Below are positions 13,159-55,377 of a DNA stretch of 62,214 bases, one piece after another. The number at the start of each line of letters is the position of its first letter. The first letter of the stretch is position 1. The DNA comes from Trichinella spiralis. Lineage: Eukaryota. The stretch spans positions 1,370,908 through 1,433,121 of the forward strand of contig NW_003526941.1 in the NCBI RefSeq assembly GCF_000181795.1, given 5' to 3'. Made by a program: the position numbers and the translations under genes. Under the pieces are notes generated by a model. That model was not told where the DNA came from. It did no database searches and saw nothing but the letters and a program-made list of their open reading frames with translations.

Positions 13159-13525
13159 GAAGTCACGGAAAGAGAACAGGTCAAAAGTCGTACAATATAG
13201 ACGAGCAGAAATTATCCTACGTTTCCTTATAAGTATATATATACATATATATTCTGAAAAATGGAACAGCTCAATGGAATCAAGCCATTGTTTTTTTTAT
13301 AGCGTCACAAAATGTTTGACAAATTTTTAACAATTGTCAGTCATCACTATTTATCAAGCTTAATAAATAAATCTGCACACTTGAAGTTATTTTTAATACA
13401 GAGTGGTAAATTTGAAACTTTTAAATCACATATATCAATCATTTAAAAGAAGAAAAAAAGTCGACAATTATATAATTCATATTAATCAATGGAGAATTGT
13501 GAAGAATATTTAAAATGACCAGCAA

Positions 13526-15060
13526 CTATTGCAATTTGTTTGAATTGTTGGTGAACAACACTGGCAGTAGTACGGCTGTAGTGAAGAAACAAAAAAAATG
13601 TTCAACAAATAACATACCGTAAAACAGTGCAGTAGGCAAGCGTCCGATCGGTATCAACGCGACGAGCTGATTCAAGCCGACGCCGAGCAATGCTTGAGCG
13701 AATTTGGTAGAGAAAAATTTCGATGCAATCTTGTTGTTGTTGTTTGTAAACATGGATTTGTTAGCCAACAATATTGCAACGCTAATTAGCACACCGACAT
13801 CACGAAAAAATGATGCCAACGGTGTGGTGGACTGATGGATCCATTCAGCTCGGTGACAATATTTAGCCGCTAATTCTATCGACCGGTGCGTGTCGACGCC
13901 GAAAAATCGGTGCGCTTCGTGCACGCTCAGGGCAATCAACAGCAAAGCAATCATGAAAGCGATCAGATTCGACCATCGCCGACGACGATGACCAACCAGC
14001 GAACGCGTAACCAACGCTATGCAAATTCCTGAAGCATGAATAAACAAATTAAATAAAAGCAAACGCTTCTCGGTCTAATTAATATGTATGTGTATGAATT
14101 TGCTTTACCAACAACGATGCCCAAAATCACTTGATCAGGAAAATGAGCGCTGATGTAAGTTCGAGAAATGGACACTGCGATTAGAAACACAACGTACAAC
14201 AGCCAACAAATTCCAGATAAATCACTGTAAATATTTTTCTTTTTCATTCGATCATTATGTTTTTTTTTATCGTTCCTATTCCAGCTTACCCGAGCACCAG
14301 ATCGCTTTGCAAATTATACAACAAATTAAACCAAACTGAAGCCGAAACCATCGCATGACCACTCGGGCTGCCTGTTTAAAAAACATTACAATTTCATTAA
14401 TGAAATTTAAAAAACTGAACAAAAATCTATAAAATATCTGGCTGCTGTTTCAGATTGAATAAGTAGAACTTGTAAAAAAACATGCTTGTCTACGGCTGCG
14501 TAAAAAAGCAATAAATTTTAACACATTCAAAAACAAGACAAACGTTAACCGTGACATTTGCTTGTTTTGTTTGACTTGAACCGATTTTTATAAAGTTCAA
14601 CTTTAGTTAGTACTCTACCATTTGGAAAAGCAAATCAAATGAAAAAAATAATTATTACCAGGTCCAGTTTCACATGTCCATTGAAACTGTTTCAACGGAT
14701 GCGACAGTTGTCCACTCACTCCGGCTGTGTAGACCCACCAGTATGGTCGATCGTCCAGCAGAATCCTAAAAAAGAAAAAACGCCTCATAAATATTATTCA
14801 ATAAGTGCAAGGTCGGTGAAAAGCCGGTACCATTTTAATATGCAATTGGAAATTTCACTGAAAGCACCAACAATTACCATATCCAACGCAGCGGTGCCAA
14901 AAAATGGAAACAAAGCTGGAAAGTATAGAGAAAATGTCATTACCGGATCGCCCAGTTTTGTCACTGCGAGCCAAAAATGCTGCGCCGTTTCGCCAAATAT
15001 GGGCAGTCGTTGAAGCCATACAACCATTTGAATTCCCAACAATTTTATCGGATTGATCAT
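13526..15060 (-). CDS. G6PC: Glucose-6-phosphatase catalytic subunit (G6PC family, PAP2 fold), multi-exon
   Basis: PAP2 motifs: LKW(ILLDD)RPYWWV, QFQWTCETGPGSPSGHAM and SRTYISAHFPDQVILG. Also AAKYCHRAEWIH..TTPLASFFRD and several TM segments. Confidence 0.92.
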
Positions 15061-15697
15061 TTCTGAAATGAAATCTTCTTCAAATGAACCTTTCCGAATT
15101 AATCAGCTATAATTTTCACGCATATAATGAACCGATTTCAAAATAATTTAGCTGTGCGCGTAAAAATACCGTTTCAAAAAAAAAGAATGAAATTCAACTT
15201 TCCACAGTTTCTGAAATACCGCAATACCAGCGGTACCTGTACCCCAGCGTCTCCAGTACTACGAAGACATTAATTAACACCGGTCTGTCCAGTTTTTTTC
15301 ATAAAAAACATCAAATATATACAGTATAAAAACGATCAAGTAAAATGAATTTATAGAATAAATTTGATTTGAATTTCAAAATAAACAAACCTAAAATAGT
15401 CAAAAATTAGTTATATAATAAATAAAACCTTGTCAAATAATTAATTATCTGCAATAATTTTTCAAATTACAATTTACTGTAATTGTAGTTCAAATGTAAC
15501 CAAACGGTTAACGTGAACCGCACACAAAAAACATCGACCAACATACGGACGGACATAAAATTAATTTTAATTTTAGAATTATGAACAATTTGCACCGGTC
15601 TGAAAATGTCCGGCGTTAAGCATGGTCGTTCGTGTGTGTTACAAATAAATGACACACAAAAAAACAATTCACTAATTTGACTGGAAAAGTAGAAAAA

Positions 15698-17858
15698 TCA
15701 AGAACCGGAAAATGGCGTGCCTGATGACTGTTCACCCTGAGCAAAGCTTATATAACGCAATTTCTGTTGCAAAGAAGGGCGCAACATTGGAATAATTCGA
15801 TCAGTATCCTGTCGAACACTGTCACCAACGTACATATATTTGACGTGATAGAAAAAATCACAAATCAAATCTTCGTATTTCCAATTACCCACTTCACAAT
15901 CAACATTGTACAACATCTGATATAGATCTGTTGTAATCTGAAAAGAAGCTCATTGAAACAAACAGTTGCATTCATCAAATCAAATAATTCTAGAAGATGA
16001 AAAATAAATTTTCGCCATTTGAACTTACGTCCATAGTAAATTTGGTACGTTCTTGGTAGAATCGCTGCAGAAATGGTGCCACCAAATGGCAAACATACAA
16101 AAATTGTCCCTCAGAACGTACGTGAGGTATCCAAGTTGAGCGTAAAGCTCTGAAAAATGCAACAAGCAAAAAACAAAACAAAACAAAACAAAAATTGAAA
16201 TAACAGCTGAATAATTAATAGATTATAAGATAAATAAATGACCAACTTACTGAGGTAAGAGTTGCAAGTAGCCGGATGCGCTGTGCAACCAAACAGCGTG
16301 ACAAAGGGCAAGTATACGTGCCGGATAGCAGTCTTCCATCAATTTTGATCGTTTTTCAAAATCTAACTTATTACTGACGTCCGTGTTGATCGAATTCATA
16401 TGATCCGAACAAAGTGTCGTCAAAATAGTCTGATAAAATGGTTCCATGTAACTAATCTAAAAAAATTGAACAAACACTTTAAATATTTCTATTCAAATTA
16501 AAAGAATGGACAAATTCACCAACCGGCAGAGCGGAAAAGATCAATCCGATCGCATTTACCCAATACATGACGGTATTTTTATCGACCAAACTGTGCCTGG
16601 AAGATTGAGACTACAAATGAAACAAACAAATCAAACTGAATTGCTGTTACTGTACCAATGAGTGACCAGAGTGACCAGAGCGTTGCCGACGTCGACAACG
16701 CCGACCGGCAGGGACATCAATTCGATGCATATGGAGTAGAGAGCGTGGGTTTGGAAGTTGTTGAATTCGACAAATCTCAGGTCAGTTTTGCGCGACCACT
16801 GCTGCCTGGGCTCGGAAAAGGTGTCGATCAGGCGCCGAACAAGGGCCGCGTAGTAATTCAAATCGGGAACCCATGGACCGCGGTCGGTCGCCTGACCGAC
16901 CCAGCCGACAAATTCGGCCGACAATAGCCAGTGGTCGTCGCGCGACGGTACGCAGGCCCCGTGCACGGCCAGAGCGAGTTTCTGCTTGATGGCCGGCGAT
17001 TCGACCAGGCGTTTTTCGTAAAAGCGGAACGTGGAATAGAGAAAACTCACCGGATATGGGTGGAACCGATACAACGGACCAAGTATGCTCAGGGTCGAGT
17101 CGAGAAATTTCAAACAAGCGGCTGGTGATTCGACCAATTTTTGCAACAACAAATCCACCACCGGAAGCATTTGCAAGCAACGGGTGCCAAAATAAACAGG
17201 CAGTGGACAGTCGTTCGGTGTCAACGAGGCGCGGCTCAGTTCCACATGGACCTGGGACCAAGTGCGTTCGGCATGCTTGATCTGGTAGGCTTGGTATTTG
17301 TCGTTCCAGTCCTGGCAGTGCCAGTAGTCGGACGGTAACATGGCCACGCAGTCGGCGACCGCCGAGCGCAGCTCTTCGGAACGCTGTACCAACAGCATGA
17401 CGATCAACAGCGCGTAAAAGGCGTCGTTACCTTCGTAGTCGCGCAGCAGCATGGTCAACATGAACCGCTCCAACGGAACCACGGCATATTTGAATATTAA
17501 ACGATTGAGCACGTCGACGCAACGATTCACGTCGGCGCTGTTGGTCTCGTAGACGAGAAAGTCGGCCAGCGATTTCAAATGGACGAGCACCTTGCGCGGA
17601 CCGAGCACTTCTAAAATTTTCATCGACACCGCCGGCAATTCGCCCGTATCGTAAACAAGGCGCCACAACAAGCACAAATATACCGTGCTTGTTGAAGTGT
17701 TTGTAAAATAATCGATCAAGCTCAATTCTGAGCCGAAAGTTCTGTGTTTGATGTATTCTTCGTCTACTTGCTGTTTGAGCAAAAAACGACTCTGTTGTTG
17801 CTGTTGCGGCTGCTGTGATGAACCAACAACAACGTTCAATTGCTGTGGTTGTGGTTGC

Positions 17859-17894
<36 letters not shown>

Positions 17895-20800
17895 GGTTGT
17901 TGTTGTTGTTGTTGTTGTTGCTGCTGTTGCTGCTGCTGTTGCTGTTGTTGCTGAGTATAATGTGAGCAAAATACTTGTGGAAATACGCTAAGTGTTGACT
18001 GAGGCCAACTGTAAGAAGGAAGCTTGTTCAACAATTCTCGGTATACCCCTTCGATGAAGCACGAATCAGAATCTTAAAAATTATCGAAACATTTAAACTG
18101 CCAAATAAATTTAACAAAATAACTACTGGATATAACTGTAGAACGAGCTAATGTTAAAATTATAATTCTCATCAATTCTTCATTTTCAGCAATCGACTGC
18201 TTTGTTCCGTCGGCTGCAACTGCGACGAAGGAATTCAAAAGACGCGCAAACGGGGCCTGAAAAATTTCATAATGCGGATACCACTGAAATTGCAACAACA
18301 ACGTCCTCTCAAGCCTAAAAATCAACACCAAATAAACAACCCACGAAATAATAATAATAATAATAGCATCTATACATCCAGTAAAGAGATGCGTTGGTTT
18401 GAAATTTTGCAAAAGCCAACGTCTGCTGCAATGTAACAATTGCGTGAACACGATACGTCGACGGGATGTTGAATAGACGATAGTTGAGAATTTCACAGCA
18501 AATGTACATCATTTCGCAGCATTGATGACGTGCCGCTGTGAGTACTATGTGCGATGTGAACTGCTTCAAGCCGAGAATTTCCAAATCCGGGTACGTCAAC
18601 ATGCGACAATACGTTTCCACCAAAGCTGGCGATGGCCAAGCACTTTTCCCCTGCATAAACCGACCAAACGTTCCAATCAAACTGTTCGCAATACTGTTCA
18701 CACGAGCATCAAAATCAGATAAAAAGATCAAAGCAAAAAAAAAGAATCAATAATCTCACTTCATCCGAACATGTACAGAAACAGAGTCGAGAAATTCCAA
18801 TTTCAGTGGTCTCAGTTTGACTTCAGAGACAGCACCGTTCGGGTATGGCATTGAATTGGTAGCGTTGGACGCAAAATTTCCAGATGCTTGGGTAGAATTA
18901 TGCCCACGTGTGTTATCCAAATTCTCTAACAAAATAGGCAAAAGATCTTGTTGAAATATTTCTGAAGTTGAACTATCTGAAAATTTCAAATTTTTCTGAT
19001 TAAGTTTCATACAGAGAAAACAAAAACTAAATTATCAATTTTTACAAGCGTTGCATAGCACGGCTACCATATAATTATCCGTATTAAACTGTGTTTTGTT
19101 CTTCAAAGCTTCTTGCAAAAATCTAAACAACATACATATAATACAATTATCATCTGAATGAACATCTCACATACTTCCTCTGAGTATTAACGGTAGGTGG
19201 AAGCTCCACTTCCATACTTGGTGATTTTTTCAAAATGTGTATCCATATACAAGTTGGAGCAAGCATTAGAACACAACTGGAATCCGATCCAGAAACAGTA
19301 AATATATCTCGTCCAGTGTACAATAATCGATACAAATCAAGAATAACGGCAAATTCTTCTACCTAAAAATATAATTATAATAATGATCGCTATACAAGTT
19401 TGTCTTTTTTTAACTAATTAATAAAAAAAACAAAATCAGATATTACACCTACAGACATATAAAATTTTCCATTTTTTAACAATTAACAAATGATCGCTAT
19501 TATAATTTAATATTCAAAATTTCTATTTTTCATACCGAATATTTCTGCATTCCACCAGAAAGAAAGTTAAACAAACACCACATCAGCTGATTCCTCGCAT
19601 ATCGATATGGATAATGAGTAAGCTGAAAAGAATGAATTTTCATAACAATATATTTTACATATGCATCAATTATAATACCTTCGTATGCAAAATTTTTACT
19701 AATCTTGTAAAGCAAATTGACTGTTGAAGGGTAAGGTAAATAATCTGCGTTGAAATAATGCGCCAAGCCTGTGGATTTAATTGACTGTGGTCGCATTCTG
19801 CAGTGAACATTAACTCCAAGATGATTTCAGTTATCACTTCTTCAAAATAAGGTATTCGTGATTTTTCCTGAAATATTTATGAAATGTGATATTCACATTT
19901 TCTGCTTCAAAATATAGTACTCACTGGCTTAGCAGTCCCAAGTAGCACCGCAATAGCGTCTCGATATGTAAAATGCATGAATACATGTGTTAACAGCCGC
20001 ATCTGGGGATTCAGTAGATCCTTAAAATTGTAATAACTTGTTTATACAAAATTCACAAAGAAAAGTCTTTTATACTTGACTGTAGGGAAGTAAACCTTTC
20101 AAAGGAAACCTCAGTGACAAAGCCTCAAGTTTCCAAAATGCGTTAAAATAAAATCCAACGTGTCCTGGAATCGGGGTCATAAATGTTCGTCCTCAAAATA
20201 AATATATTAATAAAAAAACACTGATTATTAAAAGAAAAGCATAAATGCTTACCGCAAACAGAATTTAACTGCGCCAACGGTCGAAAAGATTCTATTATTT
20301 CCGTAAAACAATCTGCCATACGCTACAAAGCAAAATAACATATAAAGTATAATAAAATAAAAACAAATAAATCAAATAAAATATTAAACCCAATGTGAAA
20401 AGCATCTCTGCTCTGGAAGATTCTTTATAATTTCCGTAATGACAAAATAGGCAGGAAGCAAATTATTTTTTCGATCACAAATTGTTTTTATTAACTAAAA
20501 TGACACATAAAAAGTTATATTATTTAAAAAAATCAGAAAATTCAAACTTTTTCGACAGCTTCTACAGATTTCCGTTGATCCACTTGAAGATGCACAGGTA
20601 TAGGAATGTCAAGAAGTCGTTTCAGAGTATCGCGCACACCCTAACAATTCAAATATCAACAAAATAAAAGCATTAATTACTTTACCTTATAGTCAAGAAG
20701 AGAAATATTTTCCATAAAGAAAGCAAATGTATCATTCCAGCCGCAGTTGTTAATGTTCAATTCTGCGCAGGTTAGTAACTTTTCACAAATGCATCTAAAT

Positions 20801-21376: not shown

Positions 21377-22441
21377 TGCGACAAAAGCACAGTATCCCCA
21401 AAATGAAATTCTACTTTAAAATGGATAATTTAATTTTGTCAACATCCAACAATTAGAACGTCTTAATAAATATGAAAATACAGTAATACCAATTTCAAGC
21501 ATAATTTATATCTAAATGTCATCAGCCTATTTTGCGAATACAATACATAAAAAAATTCCAGAATAAATATTTACTTTCTTATTATGCATAAAGAAAGTAA
21601 TGTAACTTATTATTTTTAAATCGAAGCTCTTTTTAGGCTACAGTAGGCTTCAGAAAAAATTTTCTTTATTATATTTTTCATTCACATCGCTTTTAATAAA
21701 ATTTAATTTTAGTGAATGAGCATTTTCAAATTTATATTCAAAATATTACTTTCAGCAAAATTTAAAGAAGTAAAAATTAAAGCTAAAAAAATTAGTTTCG
21801 AAACGACATTGCTATGATTAATTTTTACTTACATTTTTAATCAGTTAATAAAGATAATTAATTATTTATACTCTTTTGCTAATTGAATTATTTATGTAAC
21901 AGGGAATTCGAAAACTCCATTTTGCTGTTTATGTTTGCGTGTGTTTTTTGCATACCTGTAATTCAGTAAAGTATTTTTTATAAGGATGTGTAGCATAAAT
22001 ATATATTACTGACGTAATAAATATAAACATGCCATAAATATGTTCTTATGTATTTTCAGTTTAGTAGGCAGAGTTTCAACACAACGCAAGCAGTAAGGCC
22101 AATCCTGCATTTCATTTATTTTATACCATACTACAATAAATCTTGCCGTTGAGCGTCAACTCTCGGTTTGATTGCTTTTATAATTTATTGCAATTTTTAA
22201 AGGTGGAAATGTTATATAGTTATTTTATGCAAATTTTACTTTTACAAAATTTCAAATGTTAAAATTTTTATTACTTATGTTTTCGTTAAAGTTTTTGCTA
22301 GTGATTAAACATTGATGTCAAATACATTTTAAAATTATCTTAAGTTGACTTTTGTTGTAAATTTTGCTCAAGTTGGTAAGGTTGCTTGCTTTGAGAATTT
22401 TAGGTTTTTAATCTTAAAATTATTTACTTTTTAGTGTCATC

Positions 22442-23929
22442 ATGAGTTATTATGACTGCGACATTGTTTATTATTACATATATGGCAAAGTAATGGGCGA
22501 GTTGCCACCTTTGCAAGAGATAATGGATTATATCAATTTGCTGTCATCAGATTATATTTGGCAGAGAGAACCTTTGAAATTGCAGGAGAAATCTCTCCCT
22601 GAAGTACACTATTGTGGAAATTTGCATTTTGATGACCACTTGGATGATGAGAAAATGGTTGTCTCTCTGCTGTTAAAAGTAACTGTTCGTTTTCCTAATG
22701 TATTGGTAAGATTGGTTGAGTTGGACTCGGAACTGCTGTTCACATTGCTTGCGAATAAAATTCCCATATGGATAACCGAACGAAATGCTCCTAATCGCGT
22801 TTTCCTTTCTAACGGTGAAGTTATGCTTATTCCTCAGGGTAAAACTGTCACTGATGTTGTCGACATTCCAGATGACGTTATACCTTTAAGTACAGCCTTG
22901 GACGTGGTTCGCAGATTTCCATGGATTTGTAGGACGTCGGCAGAGTATAAGCATCAACTTCTGAATGAAGTGCAACTTCAACAAAAAAACGAACATTTTG
23001 CAAATTGCATGTTACCGAGAGTATTGGCAGCCGCTTTACGTGTAAATCCTCAACTTGTATCCGATGCTGTACACGCTTTTAATTCTCAAGGCGTAACCCC
23101 TCGCACCATTAAATATCCACCTGTTGATTTGGTCAAACAGCCAGTCAGATTCAGCAAATGTTTATACGCAATGCTGTTATTTGGTAACAATCCATTGTTT
23201 GACAGCAATAATTGGCCATTTCCAAAGGTTGGCGGTCCTTTGTACAAGGCATATAACTTAGGCTGGAAATTAACATGCGGTTTTGAACTGTTGGACTCTG
23301 TAATCTCCGTTGAACAGGATGTGCTTGAACAACAACCGATCGAACGACCGGATGACAGTGAGAACTGGTTAGTTATCAGTGCAAATGAAGTGAATTTAGA
23401 CGGGGAACCAAATTATTTAGCAAAATCTCTGAAACGTTTTATGAAAAAGAAAAGTTCCATACGTGGTGTTAAGGTAGAGAAAAATGGTTTACATTTGAAA
23501 CCTGGTTTATACGCCAACCGTTTGAAGCGAGTTTTGGATTTAAGTGAAGATGAAGATGGGAGTGACTCTGAAATGGTAGAGGATTCATCTATGTCAGAAG
23601 ATGAGGATGACGATGACGAAAAGATGGATTTTAGCGCTTCTTGCAAAGAGATGCAATCTCTGATGGATGATATGGATCGTGAATTGGCAATGACTGATGT
23701 TGGACGCAGTTTTGAAAATGCAATGCAATACAGCGAAGTCGAAGGAAACAGTGGTACAATTCCAAGAGTGGATGTGGAGAAAAATTTGATTGATAATTTT
23801 TACCAGTCATATTATTCAGCAGGAGGAAACACTGGTGCGGCAGCGACTGTGTTGCATTCAATGAATGTGAACATGATACCGCCTACACAGAATGACTACA
23901 ATCTGGACAGCGATGATGAACTGAACTAA
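22442..23929 (+). CDS. ECD: Ecdysoneless / SGT1-like protein, single coding exon, 495 aa
   Basis: DYIWQREP, FDDHLDDEKMVVSLL, NRVFL.NGE, VRFSKCLYAML, LGWKLTCGFELL, PDDSENWL, FMKKKSSIRG, MDDMDRELA and VDVEKNLIDNF..SY match the ECD/SGT1 pattern. Confidence 0.9.
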   Translation: MSYYDCDIVYYYIYGKVMGELPPLQEIMDYINLLSSDYIWQREPLKLQEKSLPEVHYCGNLHFDDHLDDEKMVVSLLLKVTVRFPNVLVRLVELDSELLFTLLANKIPIWITERNAPNRVFLSNGEVMLIPQGKTVTDVVDIPDDVIPLSTALDVVRRFPWICRTSAEYKHQLLNEVQLQQKNEHFANCMLPRVLAAALRVNPQLVSDAVHAFNSQGVTPRTIKYPPVDLVKQPVRFSKCLYAMLLFGNNPLFDSNNWPFPKVGGPLYKAYNLGWKLTCGFELLDSVISVEQDVLEQQPIERPDDSENWLVISANEVNLDGEPNYLAKSLKRFMKKKSSIRGVKVEKNGLHLKPGLYANRLKRVLDLSEDEDGSDSEMVEDSSMSEDEDDDDEKMDFSASCKEMQSLMDDMDRELAMTDVGRSFENAMQYSEVEGNSGTIPRVDVEKNLIDNFYQSYYSAGGNTGAAATVLHSMNVNMIPPTQNDYNLDSDDELN

Positions 23930-24117
23930 AATTGTGATCATTGACGAAAATATTTTGTTGAATTGAAGCGATAGATGATGTTTGTTTAGAGCATCAGTTG
24001 TGAATAAAAGCTGCAAATTGTTATTTGTTGTTTTCATGTCCACAATCAGTATTACAAGATTATCTTTTGTTTATTATCATATTAATATAGTGTTATTTAT
24101 TAAAATGAGAATTGAAT

Positions 24118-25174
24118 TCAATATTCAACGTCAAATTTATCAAAATGCCTAAGAATAATAGCTAGACGAAGGCGCAGTTTGCCAACGCTAACAGTGTTCA
24201 AGCGGCAACGATCAAATGGTGCCGAAATAACGTCCGTATCGACCACTTGAATTCCACTACCTAGCACCCAACGACGCAATTCTTGTTCAGCAGAGCCAAG
24301 CGGACGCCACATCGCACATTCGATCATATGCTCACCTGGAAACGTTGGAACGTGGCAAAAACCATAACCAGCTATACGCATCCTGCCCACTGAGTCCGAA
24401 CTCCAAACATGAAATTGCAATTTAGGCCAGCCTAAAGTGTATTTATTTAAATAAAAAATTCGTTAATATTTATTTCAAGAAATAAAGTTTATTGTTAATT
24501 TCTTTGTTTTATTATATTTGATTGTTAAATTAATTTTCAATTCACAAATAAAATTGCATACACTGAACTCAGGTTTCATTTCAAAATAAGACCATATAAA
24601 CAAATATAAATAAATTTTTCAGATTGAAATTCTATTCAAGTAAAATTAATTTATGAGTAGATTTTATAAGATTTATAGAAATGGAATTTGTAAAATTTCT
24701 CAAAATGTACAACATATTACGATTTTTAAATATTTGATCGTTAAATGAAATAATAAAAATTCATTTCAATTTCAAATTACACATCATACTGTAGCCACAA
24801 TGTTTTACCAAGGTAATCATTTGTTTGTTAATTATTTGGTATTTTGTTTTATATACATGTACACATATTGACTTCAAAGTAACTTGAATAAAAAAAATAA
24901 AGACATAGCCAACCTTGAATAGATTTTGTACACAGATGAATATCTATCGGATGTGCAAAAGTTGCATTGATTGAAGCAGAACTGAAAGCAATTTGTGTCT
25001 GTCCCGACATGCTGCCTTCCAAAACTCTCCAACCACCACCTTTAAAAATGAATACATTATGAAAATAAAAATAATTTTTTGTTTACCATATTTTAACGCC
25101 CAAACACAACTAAGACCATCTTCAGTAAAACCAACTGCATCCAGAATTTCGCCAATCACATGCAATTCGGCCAT
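24118..25174 (-). CDS. B9D2: B9 domain-containing protein 2 (MKS ciliary transition-zone module; mksr-2), 3 exons
   Basis: MAELHVIGEI...GGGWRVLEG..GQTQ...FAHPIDIHL.TKSIQGWPKLQFHVW..D..GR..IAGYGFCHVPTFPGEH..C.MWRP...LRHFDKFDVEY. Confidence 0.93.
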
Positions 25175-25301
25175 CAGATAAATTTCTGGTCGGCTAACAG
25201 CTCGCTTTTGTCCTTTTGTCGTCAATGGATACGGAGGATGCAATCAGTTGAACTTGAATAACATTTATAACTTACAGTAAACTATTCACAATATTTTAAT
25301 A
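25175..25301. promoter_or_regulatory. Very short bidirectional promoter region between B9D2 and ZIP9
   Basis: Only 127 nt separate the two divergent start codons. Confidence 0.6.
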
Positions 25302-27113
25302 ATGGCAGAAGCTTTCAGTGTACTTTTATTATCTGTATTTATGTTTATTGGTTCTCTTATGATAGGCATTGTACCAACAATAGTCTCTTTACCGGAAGTA
25401 AGGCAAAATTCAATAAAAATATAAACAACTAAACAACACGTATATGGAAATTTCATGAATTTATGATAAAAAAAATTTTAATTTATCAGAAATTACTTAT
25501 ATGCATAGAATACACTGCTTGTTGATTTGAACGGCAAATATTTTTTTCCAAATCTTAAAAAGTATGGCATAATTATGAATTACAAAATCAATATTTGCAC
25601 TTTAATTAGGTTCTCAACAGTCGTAATATAGTTTTGAAATTTAAGCTAAGTTTCAAATTAGAATATCACAATGAAATTTGTGAAAATTCTCATTTGTGTT
25701 TTCAAAATTATGTCAAAAATGTTATTGTTATTGCATTTTTTTTGATTGGAAAGCGTTTTAGAATCGAATAAAATTATCTGGCGCTCTTGGGGCTGGCCTG
25801 CTAGTTGGAACCGCTCTTGGTGTCATTGTTCCTGAAGGAATTCATGCAATTCACGCATCTCCACGTATGTAATTTGGCACCTTTATTGTTACTAAGAGTA
25901 ATAAAGTTGCATTTTTTAATTTTTTTAGTTTCGTTTTATGTATAAATTTTAATATTAATCACTTACAAAAATTATGTGTTGCAGGTGATTATGACTAGCT
26001 CATGGGCTAGCTGTCATGTGAATTTAAGATATTGAATGAATTACCTAACTTTAATGTTGTTTGCATTCATAATTAGTTTTATACTTCAGATTTGAATGCT
26101 GAAGGGAAACATTTTGATCATTACGAAAATATTCCCATCAATAAAGATGTCAATGTAGTAAAGCAGTTTATTCCTCGTCCCAAAGGTAATTTTTTTGAAA
26201 ACAACACCAAAAATACAGCAATGGGAAAAGCAGATTTACATACTGCGCAAGAAAATTGGTTGATGCATGAATGCTCTGCGGTGAACTTTGAGGGAAAAAG
26301 TCGAATTATTGGTGTGACATTGTTGTATGGTTTCTTATTCATGTTCTTAATAGAACACATAACTGAACGATACACTCATGGTAAAATCAGCCCAAAATGT
26401 TTTTTGTTTTCAATGAATTTATGTTAGGAAATGATCGTGGACGTGTCAGAATCCATCACGGATGGATGGCGACTATTGGATTAATTGTTCATTCAGCAAG
26501 TACGATATTGCTGCATGTAATTTTTTTTATTCAATCTGTTTTATTGATACTGACAATTTAGCTGATGGAATCGCTCTTGGTGCTGCAGCATTTGCAGATT
26601 CATCTGTTACTTTCATCATTTTTTTAGCTGTTTTATTACATAAAGTATGAAATTGTTTAAAAATTATTCGAAAGTGAAAACGACTGAAACGAAGTTTTAG
26701 GCACCTGCAGCATTTGGTCTTTCAACTTATCTTCTAAATGAAGGATTTGAGAAGTCGAAAATAAGGAAGCTTTTGATTATATTCTCTAGTTCAGCTCCGT
26801 TAGCTACTTTATTAACATTTGCTGGCATAAGTCAGGTATTTATTATTTAATTTGTATATTTTTTTCAAACTACTTTGTTTCATTACAGGCTCAAATTGGT
26901 CACTCGGCGAGTAGCTCTTCCAATGTAATAGGAATATTGTTACTAATTAGTGCAGGTTCGTTTTTATTTGTCGCCACGGTGCACATTTTACCTGAAGTTA
27001 TTTCAAGCATTCGTTCAGCAGGAGAGACACGTTCTGCATGTAGTTTGGAACTGCTGAGTTTATTAGCGGGTTCTGTTATTCCAGTTTTGCTTACTGTCCG
27101 TCACGGACATTAA
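25302..27113 (+). CDS. SLC39A9: Zinc transporter ZIP9 (SLC39A9), multi-exon
   Basis: [89 protein letters not shown], and C-terminal HGH*. Confidence 0.93.
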
Positions 27114-27962
27114 CGGGTGATTTGTTTCCCATTTTTAACTTAAATCAAACGTTTTGCATGGATAAATTTTCCACTTTCATCTGTTTAGAAATGTTAGAGA
27201 CGTTTCTTTTTTCATTTTACTGCGCTTTCTTTTCAGGTAAAGTTATGTTTCTTGAAATTTTCAAATTAAGTAAATTTTGCTTTCGACTAGTTCATCCGTT
27301 TGAAACAATTTCCGAAGTAAAGTTGAAAATTTGAAATGTATTACTGTAAACAACTTTTAAAAAAGTGAGTAAAATTAAAAATACAGAATTTGAATTGCTA
27401 GAATAAACATTAATTTATAAGCGAACTGAAATTTTAGTAACTACTAAACGTAATAAATGCTTCGACACTTATTAGTCACCACAAACAATTTTGAAGTTTA
27501 CGTTAAAGATTTTCAGGTTACTGAGGGAGCGAGCGGTCTGTACTATGCATACCACTCTGTCATTTATTCACTTAGGTTCCTTATTTCTGTCTGGCTGCAT
27601 TTTTTTGCTTGTATCGCATACGCTACTGGTAAGTTTGAATTCTTTATGCATTTTTGTCATGATTTCTTTTTCGCTCAAAAGCTTTTCATGTTGACATTGT
27701 TTTGAATAATTTGAAGTTCTTTTATTTTGAAATATGTAAATTTCAGTTTTATATATGGTTCAATGTTATAGTACTTGTAAACTGCATAACCGTAAGTGCA
27801 TAAATAATATTTTAAATATGCGAGTATTGTAATTTGACTTTTAGCTAACTTGTATGTTATTGGTTTTTATCATTCCTTGATAGTTTACTTTATGTATATA
27901 TTTTTTTACATAAGTTTATGGAATATATTTTAATTTCTGATGCATTTTTAAGATTTTCAAAA

Positions 27963-28894
27963 ATGACTGAACGAAATACTTGTTCATTGGAAAATTTGAA
28001 TTCAGCGACTGACAAACGTAGCCAGTTCGACAAACAATCGGTTGAATTCGACGTATATTTTGTTCTCAATAACTGACGAATAAATCATATACTTTACTGT
28101 TTTCATAATATGAAATATTCCCTTTTTTGTGTTTTCAGCGAATCATCCATATGCATCCGAAGTACTCTAATCCCGCTGCTCTTGGTCTGTCCGGTTATGC
28201 AATTGCTTCGTTCTACTTTCAACTATACAGTTTAGAAATAGTTGGTCCACATTTAACTGTCTGGTTGGCAATAATTCTTGGCGGTTTTATTCAGCTTTTG
28301 GCTGGTATGTTTTTAGACTTTTGAAGGAAAATATGAAAATGATGTTTTACTTAAAATGTATACGTTTTTTAGACATTGTAATGAATTTTTCCTTTTTCTT
28401 AAATTTTAGGTCTTCAAGAATTTTATACAGGCAACAGTTTTGCATACGCATGTTTTGGTACTTTCGGTGGAATTTGGATCTGTTTTGGTTTGCTTCTGTT
28501 TCATAGTAACAATTCCGAGGTGGATGCAATTCGCATGGATATAGGTTTTGCTTTGTGCATTTTTGCAGTTTATTCTGCATTGTTTTTGTCCGCAACGCTT
28601 ACTATGCCATTTATGTATACTGTCTTTTTTTCTGCTATTCTGATGAACCTTGTTTTCTCTATCCCAGCTCATTTCATTGCTAAAGAAAATGCAGTTTACT
28701 TGGAATACCTGAGCGCCGGTTTTTCGATGTCTGCGTGTTTGATAGCTTTGTACATCGTAGGTCACTTAATTTTTTTGGGCTCTGAGAATGAAAAATTTTG
28801 GCCCCTTGGTAGAACATTTTATGAAATTATGAAGCAAAAGAAGACGAACAAGAAGAAGCAGAATGCGAATATTGAAAATTCACCTCAGTCATAA
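27963..28894 (+). CDS. satP: Gpr1/Fun34/YaaH (SatP, AceTr family) acetate/succinate channel homolog; 3 coding exons, 246 aa
   Basis: Exons 27963-28052, 28139-28304 and 28410-28894 splice in frame (741 nt). Signature SNPAALGLSGY, GGFIQLLAGLQEFYTGNSF..FGTFGGIW, about 6 hydrophobic helices and C-terminal WPLG parallel the SatP pattern NPAPLGL..GG..Q..AG..E...GNTF...YG.FW...LPIG. Confidence 0.9.
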
Positions 28895-29017: not shown

Positions 29018-32000
29018 TTATTCGTTTTCCTCAAGCAATGTTTCTTCATTATCCAACTTTGGATGAATTGCCCGAAACAACGCTGCTAACTTGTCCATTT
29101 CGTTACGACGGGCATAGATATATTCAACTGTTTCCCACATCATTGCTATTGCATCTGAATCTTTGCTTACATTTAAACTGTAATGTTTTGACAGCGGAGG
29201 TGAAAAGCGGAAAATGGGGATTTTGCACGCGCTGCAATATTGCATCGCATGTTGCACACCGAATCCTGAAAAAAAACCTTTCTATAAAAAAAATCTGCCG
29301 TCACTTAATAAAGCAAATTTTATCACCATCTGTGACTGTAACCTGGGATATAACCAGTTTTATAATATCTATGATTGCCCCTATAAATTTATATGGATTT
29401 GATGATTTGATGTTTTTCACTTTGGTTGCCGTTCGCGGCTGCTGACCAGTACCAATGCTTAGAAGACAGCCAAGTTTTTCACAATTTTCAGCATTCTATA
29501 CCATCAAAGTAAAATTAATTTCATGATTTTACGTGAATAGTGAAGCTAAATTTAATTAAAAAAACTGTGATTACATCCTCCTCCAATAATTTGCTGTATT
29601 TTACAAAATCAGTAAGCGCCACTGCCGTTGGATTGTTTGCAATCAGACCACCGTCCATATATAGCTCATCTACAGTGGAAAAATAAAATGGCGCAGCAGT
29701 GGTACAACGCAGACATCTCCATAAAAGCACATCTTAATTTGAATTGATTAATAGATAACGTACAGTAATCTCAAAAAAGTAAAGTCAAAAAATAATTATT
29801 TAAAATAAAAGCTAAAAAAGAAGTTTTAATTATAATAATCTGTGAGTGTATGAATGAAAATCGAAACATCTAAAAGTACTGTTTTGGGCTTTTTATATTT
29901 CACTCATTTAATTCAACATGCTTTTCTTTATACTATCCATAATGAACTAGTAACTAGTTGAAATGGTTTGTTTTCGACTGATAATATTATACATATTTGT
30001 TTTATATTATTCATAATTGGAACATGATTTTGTTTGAACTTTGGCTAAATAAATAACTTACCTTCTGGATTTTGACATCCGTCGCTTTGCTTATCACTTT
30101 CCGGTACTATATAGTTACGCATAAGGTGCAACGTTGCTGGAAAATTGTCTATTTTTGATGTTGTAAGAAGTAATCTTAAAACGCATTTCATGTTTATAAT
30201 TTTAGTTCACTTTAGTATTATTTCAATTTTGATGTTATCAAGTTACATACTTGCAATTGCCGATCTCCGCCATTGTGGTAGATATCCCTACAAAACTTTG
30301 GAGCGACTTTTCAAAAGTCGACGACGGATACGGCGGCCGGAAACGTTCAAAAATCTCGTCTTTCAGTTGTAAGTATTTTCTTTGTGTATCTCGCAAAGAC
30401 ATTTCTTCAACAAAAATTTAAAAATATGTATCAGCGTGAAATTGAAAAGTAACAACAAACGCGACAAACTTAAGGCTAAAGAAGACGCTATTAGTCCTCC
30501 TGTACTGGTTCCAACTGCCCAATCCACGTAATTGTATACAGGAGCGTTAAGCCTTTTTTCCAACTCTATTAATATCTGAAAAAGAAATCAGACCGTACAG
30601 CATGATAAGCTATTAATTAATGCTGAAGTGTAAATTGGAACTGACTTGCAGCGCTATCAACCCTCGAATGCCTCCGCCGTCTATGGTGACCATAATTGAA
30701 AAATAATCTCCTTTCTTTATGTTGTTTAATACATATTCTGGATAATGCAAAAAATCTAAAAAATCGAAATGTGAAACACAAAATTCATCGACTTTCTTAT
30801 CAATAATGAAATAAGGATATTTGATATTTTGAAAAAAATTACCATTATTTTCTTCTGGCAGCGGTATTTCTTCAACGATGAACTCAGTGCAGAATTTCTT
30901 GTGGCTCAGAGATGAACGGTTGTGAATTTGGCAGGGAAAAGCGCCGTTGATCACAAGATACCGGACAAATTTTCTGAAATGAATTTTTCCAAATGAAACA
31001 AAATCCGATCCATACCAATGGAATAGCTCATTTGCATTTACTCGCTGGCGTCGGTGGGCAACATCGCGGCAATGTGCCGAGGAGTCTCGCCTTCACAGTT
31101 GACAACATTCGGATCAGCCCCGAAAACAAGCAGCGCTTTCACCAGTAGTTCATGTCCATTCTGCAAATTGAACAGAAATTAATGAAATTTGCTTGTTTGT
31201 TGTTGTTTAGCTGTTTACCGCAACGGCAATATGTAAACAAGTGTTTCCTTTGTTGTCGACGACGTTCACATTTGCGCCTTTGTAATAGAGTACCAAAACG
31301 CAGTCAAGTTTACCGGATGATGTGTGCACATGCAGTGCTGTTTGGCCGTCTTTGTTTTTAACGTTCACGTCGAAATTTGGGCAACAGTTTAAGAAAGCCA
31401 ATAGCGCCTAAAGGAAAATACAACAACAACAACATGCTTGAAATTCCCACGCCAAGTTTGAATTTACTTGCTTGCTTCGTGCAACATGCAAAGCACGGTT
31501 TCCTGTACTTTCTTGGACAACATCCGTAGGGTCATCCAATAATTTTACCACCGTTTCTATTGATCTTAAAAACATCCAATCGACTCTGTGAATTGCATTA
31601 TATTGAACGCATTACTTTCAACTTACTTTCCAGCTCTATGTGCTTTTTGTATCATGGCATGATGAAGCGGCGACAAGCCTTTTTTATTTCTGTCCATTTT
31701 GGCCCCATGGTGAAATAATAATAAAATGCATCCTGGTTTGCAAGCACCGATCGCTGTCATCATCGGCGAGTCGCCATCAGTGTCCAACGCGCTCAAGCAT
31801 TGTTTTCCGCTTTCAGTTAACATGATCTCCTTTAAATGTATAAAAATAATAGAATAATCAACACTGAAACGTTTATTATCATGATTATCACTTTGATCAT
31901 CTTTTCATTAGTCGCAGCAGCGTAATGCAAAGCATTCTTTCCGTTTTTGTCGATTTGCGTGGGCGGCACATTCAACCCGTGCATTAGATATTTCACCAGG

Positions 32001-32710
32001 CGGAAGTGGTTGTTTGCGATGGCCAAATGCAACGCACACTGACCTTCCGGACTAGAAGCTAATTTCAACAATCTGAACGTGATCAGACTGATAATATTTG
32101 AATATTGTAAAATTGAAAATGAAATACTTCTCCTTGTTTTCAGTTTGCAATTCCAATGCTTGAAAAAAAGGCATTATTCCCAACGAGGCTGCAACGTGCA
32201 CTGCTCTCCAAAGCGGATGTTCCTTGATCAAGGAGACTAGCTTTGATAAAGTTTTCTTACCTGAAGTTTTGTATTACTGGAGTAATTATTCGTTTTTTTA
32301 AACAGTGCTCTCGTCATACCGACTAGAAAAAATAACTCCTCAAAAGGATGCAACATTTTAATAAATTCCTTGCAGTCTTCTCTTTTGTTGAATCGGTGCA
32401 GGGAAACGGAACTCTCTTTCCAATTCAGCACAATGTGGTACGTTATTTCGCCCATGTCACTGGTTTTGGATTGAATTGAAAACTTGCCGAAACTTTCTTC
32501 CACGTTCATACGTTTCAGTACCTTTTTCGGAACAATGACCGAAATTGTCGGATCTTTCGGGAAGGTGAACATTATTCCAATGATTTTTTCTTTCACAAAA
32601 TCCCACGCACTGTCGCCGTCGTTTCCACTCTTCTGCTTCTTTTTCGCGTTCTTCTCGTTCATCTGTTCAGCCATACTTATTGCTTCAGTACGTATTCTGA
32701 AATGAGACAT
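29018..32710 (-). CDS. 85/88 kDa calcium-independent phospholipase A2 (iPLA2-beta/PLA2G6-like), paralog A
   Basis: Ankyrin repeats ([38 protein letters not shown]), then a patatin domain with [25 protein letters not shown]...[10 protein letters not shown] and FRFSPPL. Start may instead be MAEQ at about 32674. Confidence 0.9.
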
Positions 32711-33597
32711 ATGGAGAAGGAATAAAAAATTTGTTTTGGCATGTCCAATGAAATTGTACTTGTAAACTATTTGTTACAGTATGACAAATTGACATCTTGA
32801 ACAATTCTAATTTTTGAAAAGGTGTTATTATTTATATTTTTACTAGTTATTTTTTGTATATTCAAGGAATTGTGATAGAAAAAATAGTTTCCACTTACCT
32901 GCTGTAAAGTTGACAATTTTTTGAATTTGCGACCGAACTAGGCGTTGATTATCAGAGTACTCTGACTGAGGTTTGTGTTGACAATGGCTAAATTGTTTTC
33001 CGCACCGCAGAGTGTATGGACTTTAATGTGTTTTAAAATTTAAACAAAATTTTGAATTCGATTGAGCTTAAAGTGGAAATAGTTTAAAGTTTTAAAATGT
33101 GCAATACTTTTGAAGGAAAAATGATTGTTTTTTTTGTGTTTGCTTATTTTTCCATTTTATATCGACGATTACTTGTCAATTGTTTCGTAATTTCAACGCA
33201 GTGCTTTTAATCAGCAGTATAAATTTGCATTCCGATCGTGTATTTGTTTTCACTTATCAGTTGGTTGCGCCAGGCGCAGTGCGTGCAATTAGTGGCTTCG
33301 TTATCATCGTTTGTTTTTAATCGATGATGCTGCAAACGTCCAACAGATATTTCCTATTTTGGCCGTGTTTCTATTTAGCATTTGACGGATGAAGTGAACA
33401 GTGAAAGTAAAAAAAAACGACAAAACTGGAATAAAATTGTTGTCCAAGCAAACACGTTGATGAGTCATCGTTTTGCGATTGCGCTATTCGTTGTCGTCAT
33501 GTGGTGATTTTGCAGTTGTTCTCTGCGTTATAAAATACCGACTCGTCTCTTTGAGTTCATTTGAACTGTTCTGAAGGGAAAAAGAGAACTAATAATT

Positions 33598-36500
33598 ATG
33601 GCTAATCAACAAACGCATATTTATCAAGATTCCAACAAAATCAACCAGGTATCGAAATTTGTCGGCAACATGGTGAGCGCGGTGCGTGAGAAGGTGATGG
33701 GCGAATCTTGGTGGCTGCCGAGCAGTTCCAAAACGGTCGTCGAGATTCCGACACGTTCCGTTCGTCTGCTTGTTGAACAAGAACGACACGAACAGTTTGC
33801 AGTTTTTCGTGCTAATGAAAATCCAACCGGTGCAAATAAACTCTACCACGTGGTCTTGTACTGGATAGACAACAAAATGCTCTCGTTGAGGCGCTTCAAC
33901 GATTCGAACGAAGCTTCGAACTATTACAACATGCTGGTGCATCATTCTTGTCTGTTTCAATTGATAGGTTTGTTCTGCGCCCAATTGTACATTTAAAATT
34001 GTGCAAACGCACGCGTTGCAGATAATCGAAAAGCTCTCGACACACTTCTCGACTGTATTCAAGCCCATTCACTTTGGTTGCCAGTTCACGTTGCCGCCAA
34101 ATTGGGAATGAAGAACTATTTTGAACTGATCAAATCCAATCAACTGTGTTGCAAACAGTAAGCAGTAATTCGGCTTTTTCATTGTATACTGTCCAGTGTT
34201 CGCAGCAGTGCTCAGTCAGTTGTGTTTTGTAGACAATTATCGCACGTCTGCCAGCCGGAAGGCTGTTATCCGTTGCATATTGCGGTAGAAAGTGGCAATG
34301 TGGATTTGGTGGTCTATATGATTGATTGTTTGCAAGCCTCGTTGACTGTAACCGACATTCGAGGACAAACGCCGTTCCACTACGCTGCACGCACTAGCCC
34401 GACGATGATTACGGTTTGTGGAACAGTTTTACAAAAAAAATACCTTTTTCGTTCAACAGTTTCGATTTCAAATTTTCTCCCATTTAGGCACTGGCGTGCT
34501 ACGATAACGAGAAAAGCCGAATCAATGCACTGAGCAAGGATGGTTACACGCCGTTATTTTTGTCCATCAGTAGCTGCAAGCCAACTTGCACGGCAGCTTT
34601 GTTGAAACAAGGTGCCGTGCTGAATATTATGTGCAACGGTCGATCGCCGATTCACATGGCCATGCTGCAAAGCGGAAATAAACTTAACGAGTTTGTTTTC
34701 AGCAGATAACAATTGATCTTTTGCACGTTTTCATTCAATTCTTACATAAAGGATAATCAGGATCAATTTTTGTAATTATCTATTACAGTATCTCGTATAA
34801 CTTTTCTTTTTATTTTAAATATAATTCCAATTTTGCTTCAATTTATCTATTTTTTAAATATATATTATACAGTTATTATTTGATTTATTATAGAATGATC
34901 AAAACATTAGTCGAAGCATCTCCAGATTGCATTTACCAAGCTGAAAAGCAGACCGGCAACAGTGCACTGCACGTCGCCGGCAATAAGCAGGTGCGGGAAG
35001 CAAATATTTTTTTTTCAACTTCAAAAATATTATACAATAGTTCATATTATTTCTTGTAATGTTTTGAAATGTTTCTACTGAGATGTAGCAGTGTTATAGA
35101 ATTTGTTTTTCAAATATGTAAAATGTTAATGGAATTGAACCGAAGATTGATTAATTCGATTGTTAACTGTGTTCGTAGTAGTTAAATGTAAGGGAAAAAA
35201 CGCAGCGAGCGAACTTCAATTATAATTTTGTTTGTTACTGTTGGTAAATTTTAGGCTCTCAACGCTTTGCTGAGTGTTTGTCCTGACATTAATCTGAATT
35301 GTCGCAACAATGCCGGTCAGACTGCGCTTCATTTGCATACGTACTTGAACAATTTGAGCTGTGTAGTGGCGCTTTATTATCACGGTGCCGACTTGAACGC
35401 GAAAGATACGAATGGAAACACCAGTTTGCATATCGCCGTGTCGGTAATCGAACTTCGCCATTGTAGTTGAGGGAAATTTTTGCATTACGATAAATAATAG
35501 GCGGAAAATGAAAGCATGACAAAAGCGTTGCTTGTTCTCGGTGCCGATCCGAACATTGTCAACGACAATGGTCACAGTCCACGGCACACTGCTGCTCGAC
35601 TGAACGTTCGAGGAAGGTAAGCAAGGTTTCCTTTTATTTACTTCCCTGTTGGTTTGTTCAATTATTTATTGTTCAATTATTGTTCCACTGGTTTGAGGAA
35701 CTGATAAGCAACTATTCGTTTTTCACATTCATTCAGGGAGCTGATGAGATGTTTGATTATTGGTGGTGCGATTCGATGCCCGATTGAGAGTAGCGGTTGT
35801 GCGGCTACTTGTAGTTATCGTAATGCCGATGAAAGTGATCTTTCCGTCCAATATACTGCACTTAATTATTTGGAAAGTAAAATAAATAAAATTATACTGT
35901 CATTATTGTTATTGTTATTGTTATTACTATTATTTCATTGTTTGGTTTATTGTTTAAGCGGTTAGTGTTCGCAAGCAAGAAAAATGCATCAAAAAAGTTG
36001 TTGAAATGGCAGCTACTGGAAAGAAATTCGATGTATTGTTAAGCTTGGACGGTGGTGGTATTCGAGGCGTCATTTTAGTTCAGGCATGGGGGAAAATATA
36101 ATTTTTTGTCATTGTATTAAGTTCTGTTTTTTTTCCATTTTGTAGATTTTACTTTATATTGAAGCTGCATTGAAGAAGCCGTTGATTTCTTACGTCACTT
36201 GGCTTGCTGGTACTAGTACTGGAGGATTTTTGGCTGCTGGTTTGGCAAAAGGTAAAATAGCAGATTGTTTATATTTTTGTTCTATGTGTTAGAATTCTGT
36301 TTTAGGAATGTCACTTCGAGATTGTCAAAAAATTTATCTTCGAATGAAAGATTGTCTTTTCGAAGGCCGCATACGGCCTTATCAGAGTGATGCTTTTGAG
36401 CAGTTGATAAAGGCAAATATTGGCGAAACTTCCAAAATAACCGATATCGTCTCTCCAAAGTAATGATGAAAACGTTTGCTTTTGTTTATTTAGGAAAATT

Positions 36501-41940: not shown

Positions 41941-43262
41941 ATGATGTTCATAGGCACCCTGAAGGCAGCTGCGGTACCGGACACCAGTCTCTGCTCTTCA
42001 GCCGGCGCTCTATTGCAAGCTAGTTCTTCACAGCACCAGTCGACTCGATTTTCAGTTACTGACATTCTCAGTCCTTTAGAGGATCCTTTAACATCTCAGT
42101 GGCGAACACTGAAACCACAAATGATCATGAATTCTTTTGATGGCAGTTCACTTAATCCATTCAGCGCTTATCGGACTCCGCCGTCATCAACTATGCACTC
42201 TCAGCAAGCGCCAACGATGTCCAACCCATACTTGGGGCATTGTCCAGGTTCAGCTGGTGCTGGAGCACCTTTTGCATCTCATCAGTATCAACCGTCCACA
42301 GATTTTTCATCTTACGCTGCTGCAGCCGCTGCAGCCAATCAAACTGCAAGCTGGTATAATGCGACACATGACAGTCGTTTTGGAGGTGATTACATTTTTG
42401 CTGTTGCTTGCATTGTTTTTCTTTTGTTATATACTTTCCGGTAAATTGAATTTTAATTTATCACTGTTTTACAGTTCCAAGACTTATGGCTACGACTACT
42501 GGTGGCCCGGCACCGCCAAGCATGACCATGCTCGGCGCCTGCGGTATGCTAGATCCGGCGAAAGCCGCTGCCGCTGGTATTCAATTTCCAATGCCGCAAC
42601 GCCGCAAAAGGAGAGTGCTGTTTACGCAGGCTCAAGTATATGAGCTGGAGCGACGATTTAAACAACAAAAATATCTGTCAGCTCCAGAACGTGAACATCT
42701 CGCTCAGTTGATCAACCTCACCCCAACCCAGGTCAAAATTTGGTTCCAGAATCATAGGTATAAATGCAAACGACAAGCCAAAGAAAAGCTCATGCAAGAG
42801 CCAGACGCGGCCGCCAGTGCTGATGGGCAGCAGAAAATATCAGTCATTGACTCGGATCGTGAAAGTTACGCTGACTCACCGACGCCAAGTCGTGATTCTA
42901 GCGCTGGGCCAAGTGCAGTTGGATCACCGACGCCGGTCACCGTTGGCGCCGACATGTCTAGTCGGTCACCGAGAAAAATTGCAGTTTCTGTGCTGGTAAA
43001 AGATGATAAACCATCTGAAGAAGCTCCAAACATTAGTCCAGTTGTTGCGTCAATTGACTACAATAAGGCCAGCGGCATGTCGGGTATGCCGTGCACGCAA
43101 GGTAGCAGTTGGGCTCAGCCGCCCACGCATCCATTTCCTTGCCCTGCGCCTAGTTCGTTCAACTCATTTGCCAGCTCACATCTGGCAGCACCGACAAATC
43201 TCGGCTATACAACCATGCCTGGCTCATCACCGTATTACGCTCTGCACGCTCGTGGATGGTAA
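41941..43262 (+). CDS. NKX2-1: NK2.1-class homeobox transcription factor (NKX2-1/NKX2-4/scro/ceh-24-like), 2 exons
   Basis: TN/eh1 motif [21 protein letters not shown] before intron 42386-42474; homeodomain [35 protein letters not shown]...[14 protein letters not shown] (Tyr54); NK2-[19 protein letters not shown]-terminal Trp. Confidence 0.95.
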
Positions 43263-55200: not shown

Positions 55201-55377
55201 GGTAGCAAGCCCGCAGTAGACCAGATTATTCCAGTGTACCGTAGGGATTGTCACGAAGAAGTTTATGCAGGAAGTCATCCTTATCCAGGACGTGGCGTAT
55301 ATTTACTCAAGTTTGACAACTGTTATTCACTTTGGCGTTCCAAGACGCTTTATTATCGAGTATATTACAGTAAATAG
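52225..55377 (+). CDS. ACBD3: Golgi resident protein GCP60 / acyl-CoA-binding domain protein 3, multi-exon
   Basis: ACB domain ([26 protein letters not shown]), [14 protein letters not shown], and GOLD domain ([70 protein letters not shown]). Confidence 0.95.

Follow-up and report, generated by a model that had tools for sequence, protein, structure and literature searches.

The stretch of Trichinella spiralis DNA analyzed here (the window, 62,214 nt in length) carries a three-exon gene for a protein of the AceTr (SatP/YaaH) family, located between a ZIP9 zinc transporter gene and an iPLA2-beta-like gene (Table 1). The coding sequence begins with the ATG at 27963 and ends with the TAA at 28892-28894, giving 741 nt that encode 246 amino acids plus the stop codon. 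We took the exon model from the splice combinations enumerated within the window; many other combinations were also open, and the choice of exons therefore rests on RNA joints. Both introns were recovered as GT..AG joints in seven of eight runs from four studies, that is, in three of the four runs of a first batch (X1 and X4 as contigs, X18 as raw reads) and in all four of a second. The seven spliced runs are mostly contigs whose RNA status is the search tool's guess, no indexed dataset being recorded as RNA, and X18 is the sole raw-read run, read to 18% and yielding 40 reads in 4 kb. The stranded X18 reads crossed the two AceTr joints once and four times, and their first mates lay on the minus strand over ZIP9 and AceTr and on the plus strand over iPLA2, matching the orientations of the genes. 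The eighth run (X14) carried no joints; its single 19.6-kb DNA contig covers 26000-30000 with two differing letters, may be the source of the analyzed DNA, and ties AceTr to ZIP9 and iPLA2 at the DNA level.

The GC and GC3 contents of the coding sequence (38 and 37%) resemble those of the adjoining single-exon SGT1 ORF (40 and 37%), and the window contains a single AceTr copy. Three exons encoding a 246-aa protein, two introns of host style, a host-like composition and a position between the metazoan genes ZIP9 and iPLA2-beta had all been claimed in the original prediction, and all were borne out. We have hardly any doubt that the locus is a bona fide spliced and transcribed Trichinella gene of the AceTr family. 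The seven public Trichinella models examined were all mis-spliced, truncated or fused to ZIP9. Variants of the gene in related organisms amounted to two synonymous and two non-synonymous changes, too few for a test of selection. A C>T change at 27972, which makes codon 4 a stop, was seen in one contig of organism D (X11) with a depth of 3.9, and is probably an error.

Table 1. Features of the AceTr locus and its neighbors (window coordinates)
Feature	Coordinates	Strand	Description
ZIP9 zinc transporter	25302..27113	+	Zip (PF02535); upstream gene, stop 27111-27113
Two AATAAA hexamers	27402..27457	+	At 27402 and 27452, 115 and 65 nt before 27517; candidate ZIP9 poly(A) signals
Non-coding leader exon	27517..27628	+	Behind TTTTCAG acceptor 27510-27516, a candidate trans-splice site; X9 contig begins at 27517
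5' leader intron	27629..27952	+	324 nt, GT..AG; acceptor 10 nt before ATG; X1, X4, X9
AceTr coding exon 1	27963..28052	+	ATG and 30 hydrophilic N-terminal residues; joint 28052->28139 in 7/8 runs
AceTr intron 1	28053..28138	+	86 nt, GT..AG, phase 0
AceTr coding exon 2	28139..28304	+	NP-x-x-LGL signature, TM1-TM2; PF01184 35.2 bits; residue map to E. coli SatP
AceTr intron 2	28305..28409	+	105 nt, GT..AG, phase 1
AceTr coding exon 3	28410..28894	+	TM3-TM6 and basic tail; PF01184 27.2 bits; AlphaFold, Foldseek
iPLA2-beta-like gene	29018..32700	-	Ankyrin and patatin exons; convergent to AceTr; 5' end approximate; minus-strand splicing

Two iPLA2-beta-like paralogues with ankyrin repeats are arranged head to head in 29018-35467, the minus-strand copy from about 32700 and the plus-strand copy from about 33590, with patatin confirmed only for the former. 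On the other side, the single-exon SGT1/ecdysoneless ORF is convergent with a B9-domain gene (22418-25400), whose start lies about 120 nt from ZIP9, head to head, as if the two might share a bidirectional promoter. Other exons, at 11682-19826, 42450-43259 and 55069-55374, belong to genes of ordinary metazoan kinds: a protein-tyrosine phosphatase, a PAP2 protein, Med23, a homeobox gene and a GOLD-domain protein. The window ends with a strongly G-skewed tandem array (61340-62000) that has a purine-rich unit of about 24 nt and a GC skew of 0.70.

Protein family and fold

The assignment to the AceTr family and the signature motifs quoted in its favor were confirmed. The frames of exons 2 and 3 each exceeded the 25-bit cut-off of PF01184 (E 1.3e-8 and 3.5e-6; bit scores in Table 1), and the spliced protein scored 154.6 bits, compared to 156.3 bits for E. 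coli SatP, with a subfamily profile that was built without it. The motifs are located at residues 41-50, 78-86, 89, 93-96 and 101-108. The TM1 signature NPAALGLS (residues 41-48) agrees with NPAPLGL(M/S) at seven of eight positions; its P-to-A change is common to Trichuris, and a like change is reported for some Candida Atos in the accessible literature. The SatP residues N8, P9, G46, G47, Q50, E57, G61, N62, F64, G73 and W76 are all kept. Single-sequence searches recovered Trichinella models only, SatP structures were reached only with profiles, and a genome scan with the Trichinella profile gave no match.

The AlphaFold model of exon 3 (pLDDT 90, pTM 0.79) has four long helices, and the top six Foldseek rows were SatP chains, each with a probability of 1.00 and a TM-score of 0.66-0.67 and with E-values (0.014-0.063) above the 0.001 bar. 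TM1 and TM2 were placed by ungapped profile alignment, the predicted structure covering exon 3. In the SatP-fold test the Atlas model of the Trichuris muris protein aligned at TM 0.76/0.91. As modeled, the window protein is a six-TM-helix protein with the SatP fold, in agreement with the roughly six helices originally proposed.

Relatives and phylogenetic position

Homologues more than 90% identical occur in Trichinella britovi, murrelli, nativa, T9 and pseudospiralis. Compared to T. pseudospiralis, 184 of 201 common residues are identical, with four changes in residues 41-218 and 13 in the termini, so the AceTr core, as judged from sequence, has changed little within the genus. Searching 1.84 billion representatives with a profile produced 62 matches; 21 were looked up, and the seven that carried organism names were all Trichinella, Trichuris or Soboliphyme. 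The subfamily profile gave 263 matches, and the 11 organism-named rows among the 120 listed were nine bacterial and two Trichuris. Animals outside the clade I nematodes were found neither among the seven named matches (of 62) nor among the 11 named listed rows (of 120), and the closest named non-nematode relatives of the protein are bacterial. In a metagenome scan the T. muris protein was 35-47% identical to named bacterial loci (best 80 of 511, a sample picked by likeness to T. muris). None of these 80 loci fell in the nematode-containing clade and none had introns. One metagenome contig contained two adjoining AceTr matches (L147 35-1064), and the N-termini of two subfamily members (P0187 and P0012) read like mitochondrial targeting sequences.

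We built IQ-TREE trees (LG+G4) of 74 rows with, and 67 rows without, seven long-branch rows (P0188, P0038, P0053, P0017, P0020, P0031 and P0015), which were also left out of a FastTree tree of about 250 rows and of the AU tests; the rows included no vertebrate triple-domain sequence. The window protein, Trichuris and Soboliphyme_1 formed a clade at 100/100 in both IQ-TREE trees. A wider clade of 14 rows, made up of six nematode rows (including Soboliphyme_2) and eight rows without a source name, was recovered at 100/97 in the 67-row tree, whose bootstrap was not fully settled, at 93 by FastTree, and as 16 rows at 88/93 in the 74-row tree. In the 67-row tree it lay inside a 58-row NPAVVGL subfamily that stood apart from SatP and fungal-type Ato at 100/100. 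The window protein is itself a long branch (1.2-2.1 changes per column), and when the long branches were retained, FastTree placed the nematode rows together with other long ones. The nematode clade was nested among bacteria in the 67-row tree but not in the 74-row tree, with no single donor phylum. Grouping with fungal-type rows was rejected by the AU test (p 0.008; six rows, classed as fungal-type from their sequence and not from a source name). By these comparisons the protein is akin to the NPAVVGL subfamily and not to the fungal-type Ato. The six nematode rows as one clade were not rejected (p 0.38).

The eight sister rows carry long tails at both the N- and the C-terminus, and two of them begin at or just after the intron-2 point of the window gene; they are therefore probably eukaryotic, and may represent the published single-domain clade of protostomes. 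The Soboliphyme model P0009 and the model P0018, which lacks a source name, begin at this point, which suggests that intron 2 is common to them and the window gene. Since orthologues are present in Trichuris and Soboliphyme, the gene is not a recent acquisition of Trichinella, and on its relationships it predates the split of the three genera. Trichuris suis also has a degenerate paralogue (P0188/P0032), possibly a non-transporting subunit, in which the F17 site is H and the NP motif, both glycine motifs and E57 are gone.

Origin of the gene

The AceTr/Ato family is reported to be widespread within Bilateria (iScience 2026, PMC13316224), and the original statement that it is not a standard animal family is thus outdated. 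The accessible text of that paper describes a mostly vertebrate clade of triple-domain Sua5 fusions of about 900 aa that is missing from mammals, homologues in vertebrate lineages other than mammals, and a single-domain protostome clade (legends of Figs S5 and S7). In an Atlas search with the T. muris model, chordate clusters aligned at TM 0.66-0.67. Its dataset comprised all UniProtKB entries with PF01184, and entries from Trichinella, Trichuris and Soboliphyme with this domain exist in UniProtKB. The same text, as accessible, names no nematode, does not discuss the origin of the protostome clade, and holds nothing on how the Trichinella gene is correctly modeled or on the residues of its pore. 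The accessible part of a review on horizontal gene transfer in Trichinella (PMC9079694) does not mention acetate, SatP or YaaH, the main text of a Xiphinema preprint gave no match for acetate or transporter, and the open-access literature held no dedicated paper on the AceTr family with nematodes, Trichuris or transfer. The presence of AceTr in animals is already in print; what is new is the position of the nematode copies in a bacteria-rich branch, together with their possible early acquisition and their likely passage of small organic acids.

The proposal of a foreign gene was upheld in one respect and weakened in another. The nearest named non-nematode relatives are bacterial and the best tree nests the clade among bacteria, but this nesting is not required by the data, as placing the 14-row clade outside all sampled bacteria was not rejected (p 0.21). 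The broad animal distribution that had been named as evidence against transfer was found in part, namely a family reported throughout Bilateria (PMC13316224, accessible text) with a single-domain clade in protostomes. Horizontal transfer is only plausible, because neither that placement nor a single clade of all eukaryote-like subfamily rows (p 0.18) was rejected by the AU test. We give even chances, on the sequence comparisons, to the view that the animal single-domain clade came from bacteria in the distant past. The gene would then have entered the worm lineage long ago, probably from the bacteria-rich branch of the family.

The alternative that survives best is vertical inheritance, which needs no transfer into animals: an NPAVVGL-type paralogue old in eukaryotes or in animals would have persisted in clade I nematodes and some other protostomes and disappeared from the remaining lineages. 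The reported spread of the family across Bilateria agrees with it, as do the p of 0.18 for one eukaryote-like clade, the eukaryote-like tails and intron-2 starts of the sister rows, and an Atlas search with the T. muris model, in which a Euglenozoa-rich cluster was among the nearest. However, the best trees scatter the eukaryote-like rows separately among bacteria, the sisterhood to fungal-type proteins expected from plain opisthokont descent was rejected, and clade I nematodes were the only animals among the named matches listed. We regard vertical inheritance as a serious possibility that falls short of being probable.

Pore constriction and predicted transport

The constriction of SatP (F17, Y72 and L131) corresponds to Y50, F104 and I162 in the window protein, all three changed and all hydrophobic or aromatic. 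Among 167 subfamily rows, none had Y at the position of F17 or I at that of L131, and 10 had F at that of Y72; in T. britovi the F17 position is H. In a first HMM alignment to SatP, A161 had been matched to L131, a placement that would predict a wide succinate pore; it was dropped because the alignments with orthologues and with the subfamily put I162 at L131 with the top posterior. In yeast Ato1, according to the accessible text of PMC8379382, Y155F is functional and position F98 can do without an aromatic residue; acetate and lactate pass through L219V, and succinate requires a small residue at 219. Judged by these mutants, the I162 constriction would be nearer to L219V than to the succinate-permissive small residues. 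Passage of monocarboxylates is the likely activity because yeast Ato1 tolerates comparable changes at the constriction, and an altered specificity is possible because Y50 and I162 were seen in none of the 167 rows. By analogy with the family, we consider carboxylate transport by the Trichinella protein to be fairly likely.

The single-domain protein would thus act as a six-helix membrane channel for small carboxylates, for example acetate and lactate. Each six-helix subunit is expected to have its own pore and to oligomerize like SatP, with acid flux along the gradient or by proton coupling, as known for the family. Excretion of organic acids by helminths is well documented, and the protein may help an anaerobic parasite of tissue or gut to rid itself of fermentation acids. 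We suggest this as the most likely role by analogy, because T. muris or its secretions are reported to contain acetate and succinate; the accessible part of PMC11731824 lists acetate and names succinate as dominant in the secretions of T. muris. The open-access literature held no paper that ties the AceTr family to helminth acid excretion.

Substrate or activity may also have drifted in the Trichinella copy, and a second alternative takes this further by proposing that the protein kept the fold and took on another role, such as ammonia export, transport of a different anion or acid sensing. The residues unique to the constriction (Y50 and I162), the H of T. britovi and the long branch are in line with such a change, and the degenerate T. 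suis paralogue P0188 is an instance of drift within the clade. The public models bear the name 'Ammonia transport outward protein 2', an automatic designation derived from yeast ATO2. Trichinella larvae are reported to excrete nitrogen as ammonia and amines (PMC9079694, accessible part). On the other hand, all other signature residues are kept, the yeast changes Y155F and loss of the aromatic at F98 are tolerated (PMC8379382), and the characterized members named in the accessible literature carry carboxylates. We consider a changed role unlikely.

Proposed co-transcription with ZIP9

RNA joints connect the 3' region of ZIP9 with the AceTr acceptor. The joint 27627->27952 was present in three of the seven spliced runs and the joint 27115->27952, with its donor 3 nt past the ZIP9 stop codon, in one of the seven (X10). 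A further alternative joint, 27115->27188, was seen within the ZIP9 3' region. In the shortest ZIP9-AceTr RNA the AceTr ATG lies 13 nt after the ZIP9 stop and out of frame, making it an RNA with two ORFs and not a fusion. The fused public models are probably accounted for by alternative cis-splicing, which joins the 3' region of ZIP9 to the start of AceTr. A genuine fusion of ZIP9 and AceTr in one protein, which the models P0003, P0004, P0005 and P0007 depict, could draw on the same linking joints, but every one of them leaves downstream of the ZIP9 stop, the junctions of the fused models were found in none of the eight runs, and the models disagree with one another; we consider it very improbable.

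The sequence between the genes has an operon-like geometry. The accessible text of a study on T. spiralis operons (PMC7668243) gives intercistronic distances of 74-213 nt from poly(A) to acceptor, and the spacing from AATAAA to TTTTCAG on the same strand fits this range, resting on poly(A) signals that are themselves candidates. From the RNA joints and this geometry, AceTr would share a transcript with ZIP9 as the downstream gene of such a unit. No spliced leader was found among the loose ends, X18 contributing only 40 reads in 4 kb, and the supplements of the operon paper (12 files, all but one of them searched) contained no ZIP9 or AceTr family names. We treat the operon as a hypothesis because no leader turned up and the ends of contigs count for little as evidence; the ZIP9-AceTr joints would also suit a promoter of its own for AceTr, combined with read-through splicing. 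The leader exon contains an upstream ATG that opens a 33-aa ORF, running from 27545 to nt 8 of the coding sequence and overlapping the main start out of frame. By its position, this ORF could possibly damp translation unless trans-splicing occurs at 27953.

Combined interpretation and significance

Both a recent horizontal acquisition confined to Trichinella and a bacterial or fungal contaminant in the assembly could appeal to the bacterial identity of the closest named non-nematode relatives, and both are scarcely credible: the gene is spliced in four studies, is joined to ZIP9 and iPLA2 in unbroken DNA (contig X14), resembles SGT1 in composition, occurs in five named Trichinella taxa and is orthologous to Trichuris and Soboliphyme genes, which excludes contamination, as had been anticipated. 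The explanation that best joins the results is a spliced, single-domain AceTr gene with orthologues in whipworms and Soboliphyme, encoding a likely carboxylate channel that probably entered the lineage long ago from the bacteria-rich branch, and we hold this to be somewhat probable as a whole. A bolder version is that an acetate channel of anaerobic bacteria passed to the ancestor of the clade I parasitic nematodes, or of a wider group of protostomes, in an event separate from the fungal and vertebrate Ato lines, and that the channel, in an operon behind ZIP9, is now the main exit of fermentation acids (acetate and succinate) in Trichinella and whipworms and a drug target absent from mammals. 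We offer this version as a conjecture that is, taken in full, quite doubtful.

AceTr in an animal is a surprise already published, and the family is known; the gene described here adds a member to it, now correctly modeled. The RNA-supported 246-aa model corrects the public Trichinella models. A channel that is absent from mammals and common to Trichinella and Trichuris is a cheap and testable candidate, and if the acid exit of bacterial origin proves true, it would be a drug target without a counterpart in mammalian hosts. The original claim of no host counterpart stands for mammals, from which the family is reported absent, but not for other vertebrate lineages, in which homologues are reported (PMC13316224, accessible text).

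Comparison with known systems

Among the closest parallels are the proteins annotated GPR1/FUN34/yaaH in Trichuris muris, suis and trichiura and in Soboliphyme baturini (A0A5S6R4L6, A0A085NCD8, A0A077Z4H6, A0A183IY54 and A0A183ICR3), which are 33-38% identical to the window protein and share its F at the Y72 site. These worms have at least two paralogues and have kept F17 and L131, whereas the Trichinella copy is far more diverged. The single-domain Ato/AceTr clade of protostomes (PMC13316224, accessible text) agrees with the window protein in being animal, in having a single PF01184 domain and a length of 200-300 aa, and in having no Sua5/YrdC.

The bacterial NPAVVGL acetate uptake transporters of Rhodocyclaceae, Desulfobacterota, Bacteroidota, Verrucomicrobiota and Chloroflexota belong to the subfamily of the window protein and are about 30% identical to it. 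Unlike the window protein, they are intronless, with short termini and an F/Y/L constriction. E. coli and Citrobacter SatP (PDB 5ZUG, 5YS3 and 5YS8) and yeast Ato1/Ady2 have the fold and the signature residues in common with it; they come from a different branch, at 27% identity across 116 residues, and have NPAPLGL and F/Y/L in place of NPAALGL and Y/F/I. The triple AceTr-Sua5/YrdC proteins of vertebrates share the AceTr domain (TM 0.66-0.67 to the T. muris Atlas model), but differ from the window protein in their length of about 900 aa and in combining three domains with an enzyme.
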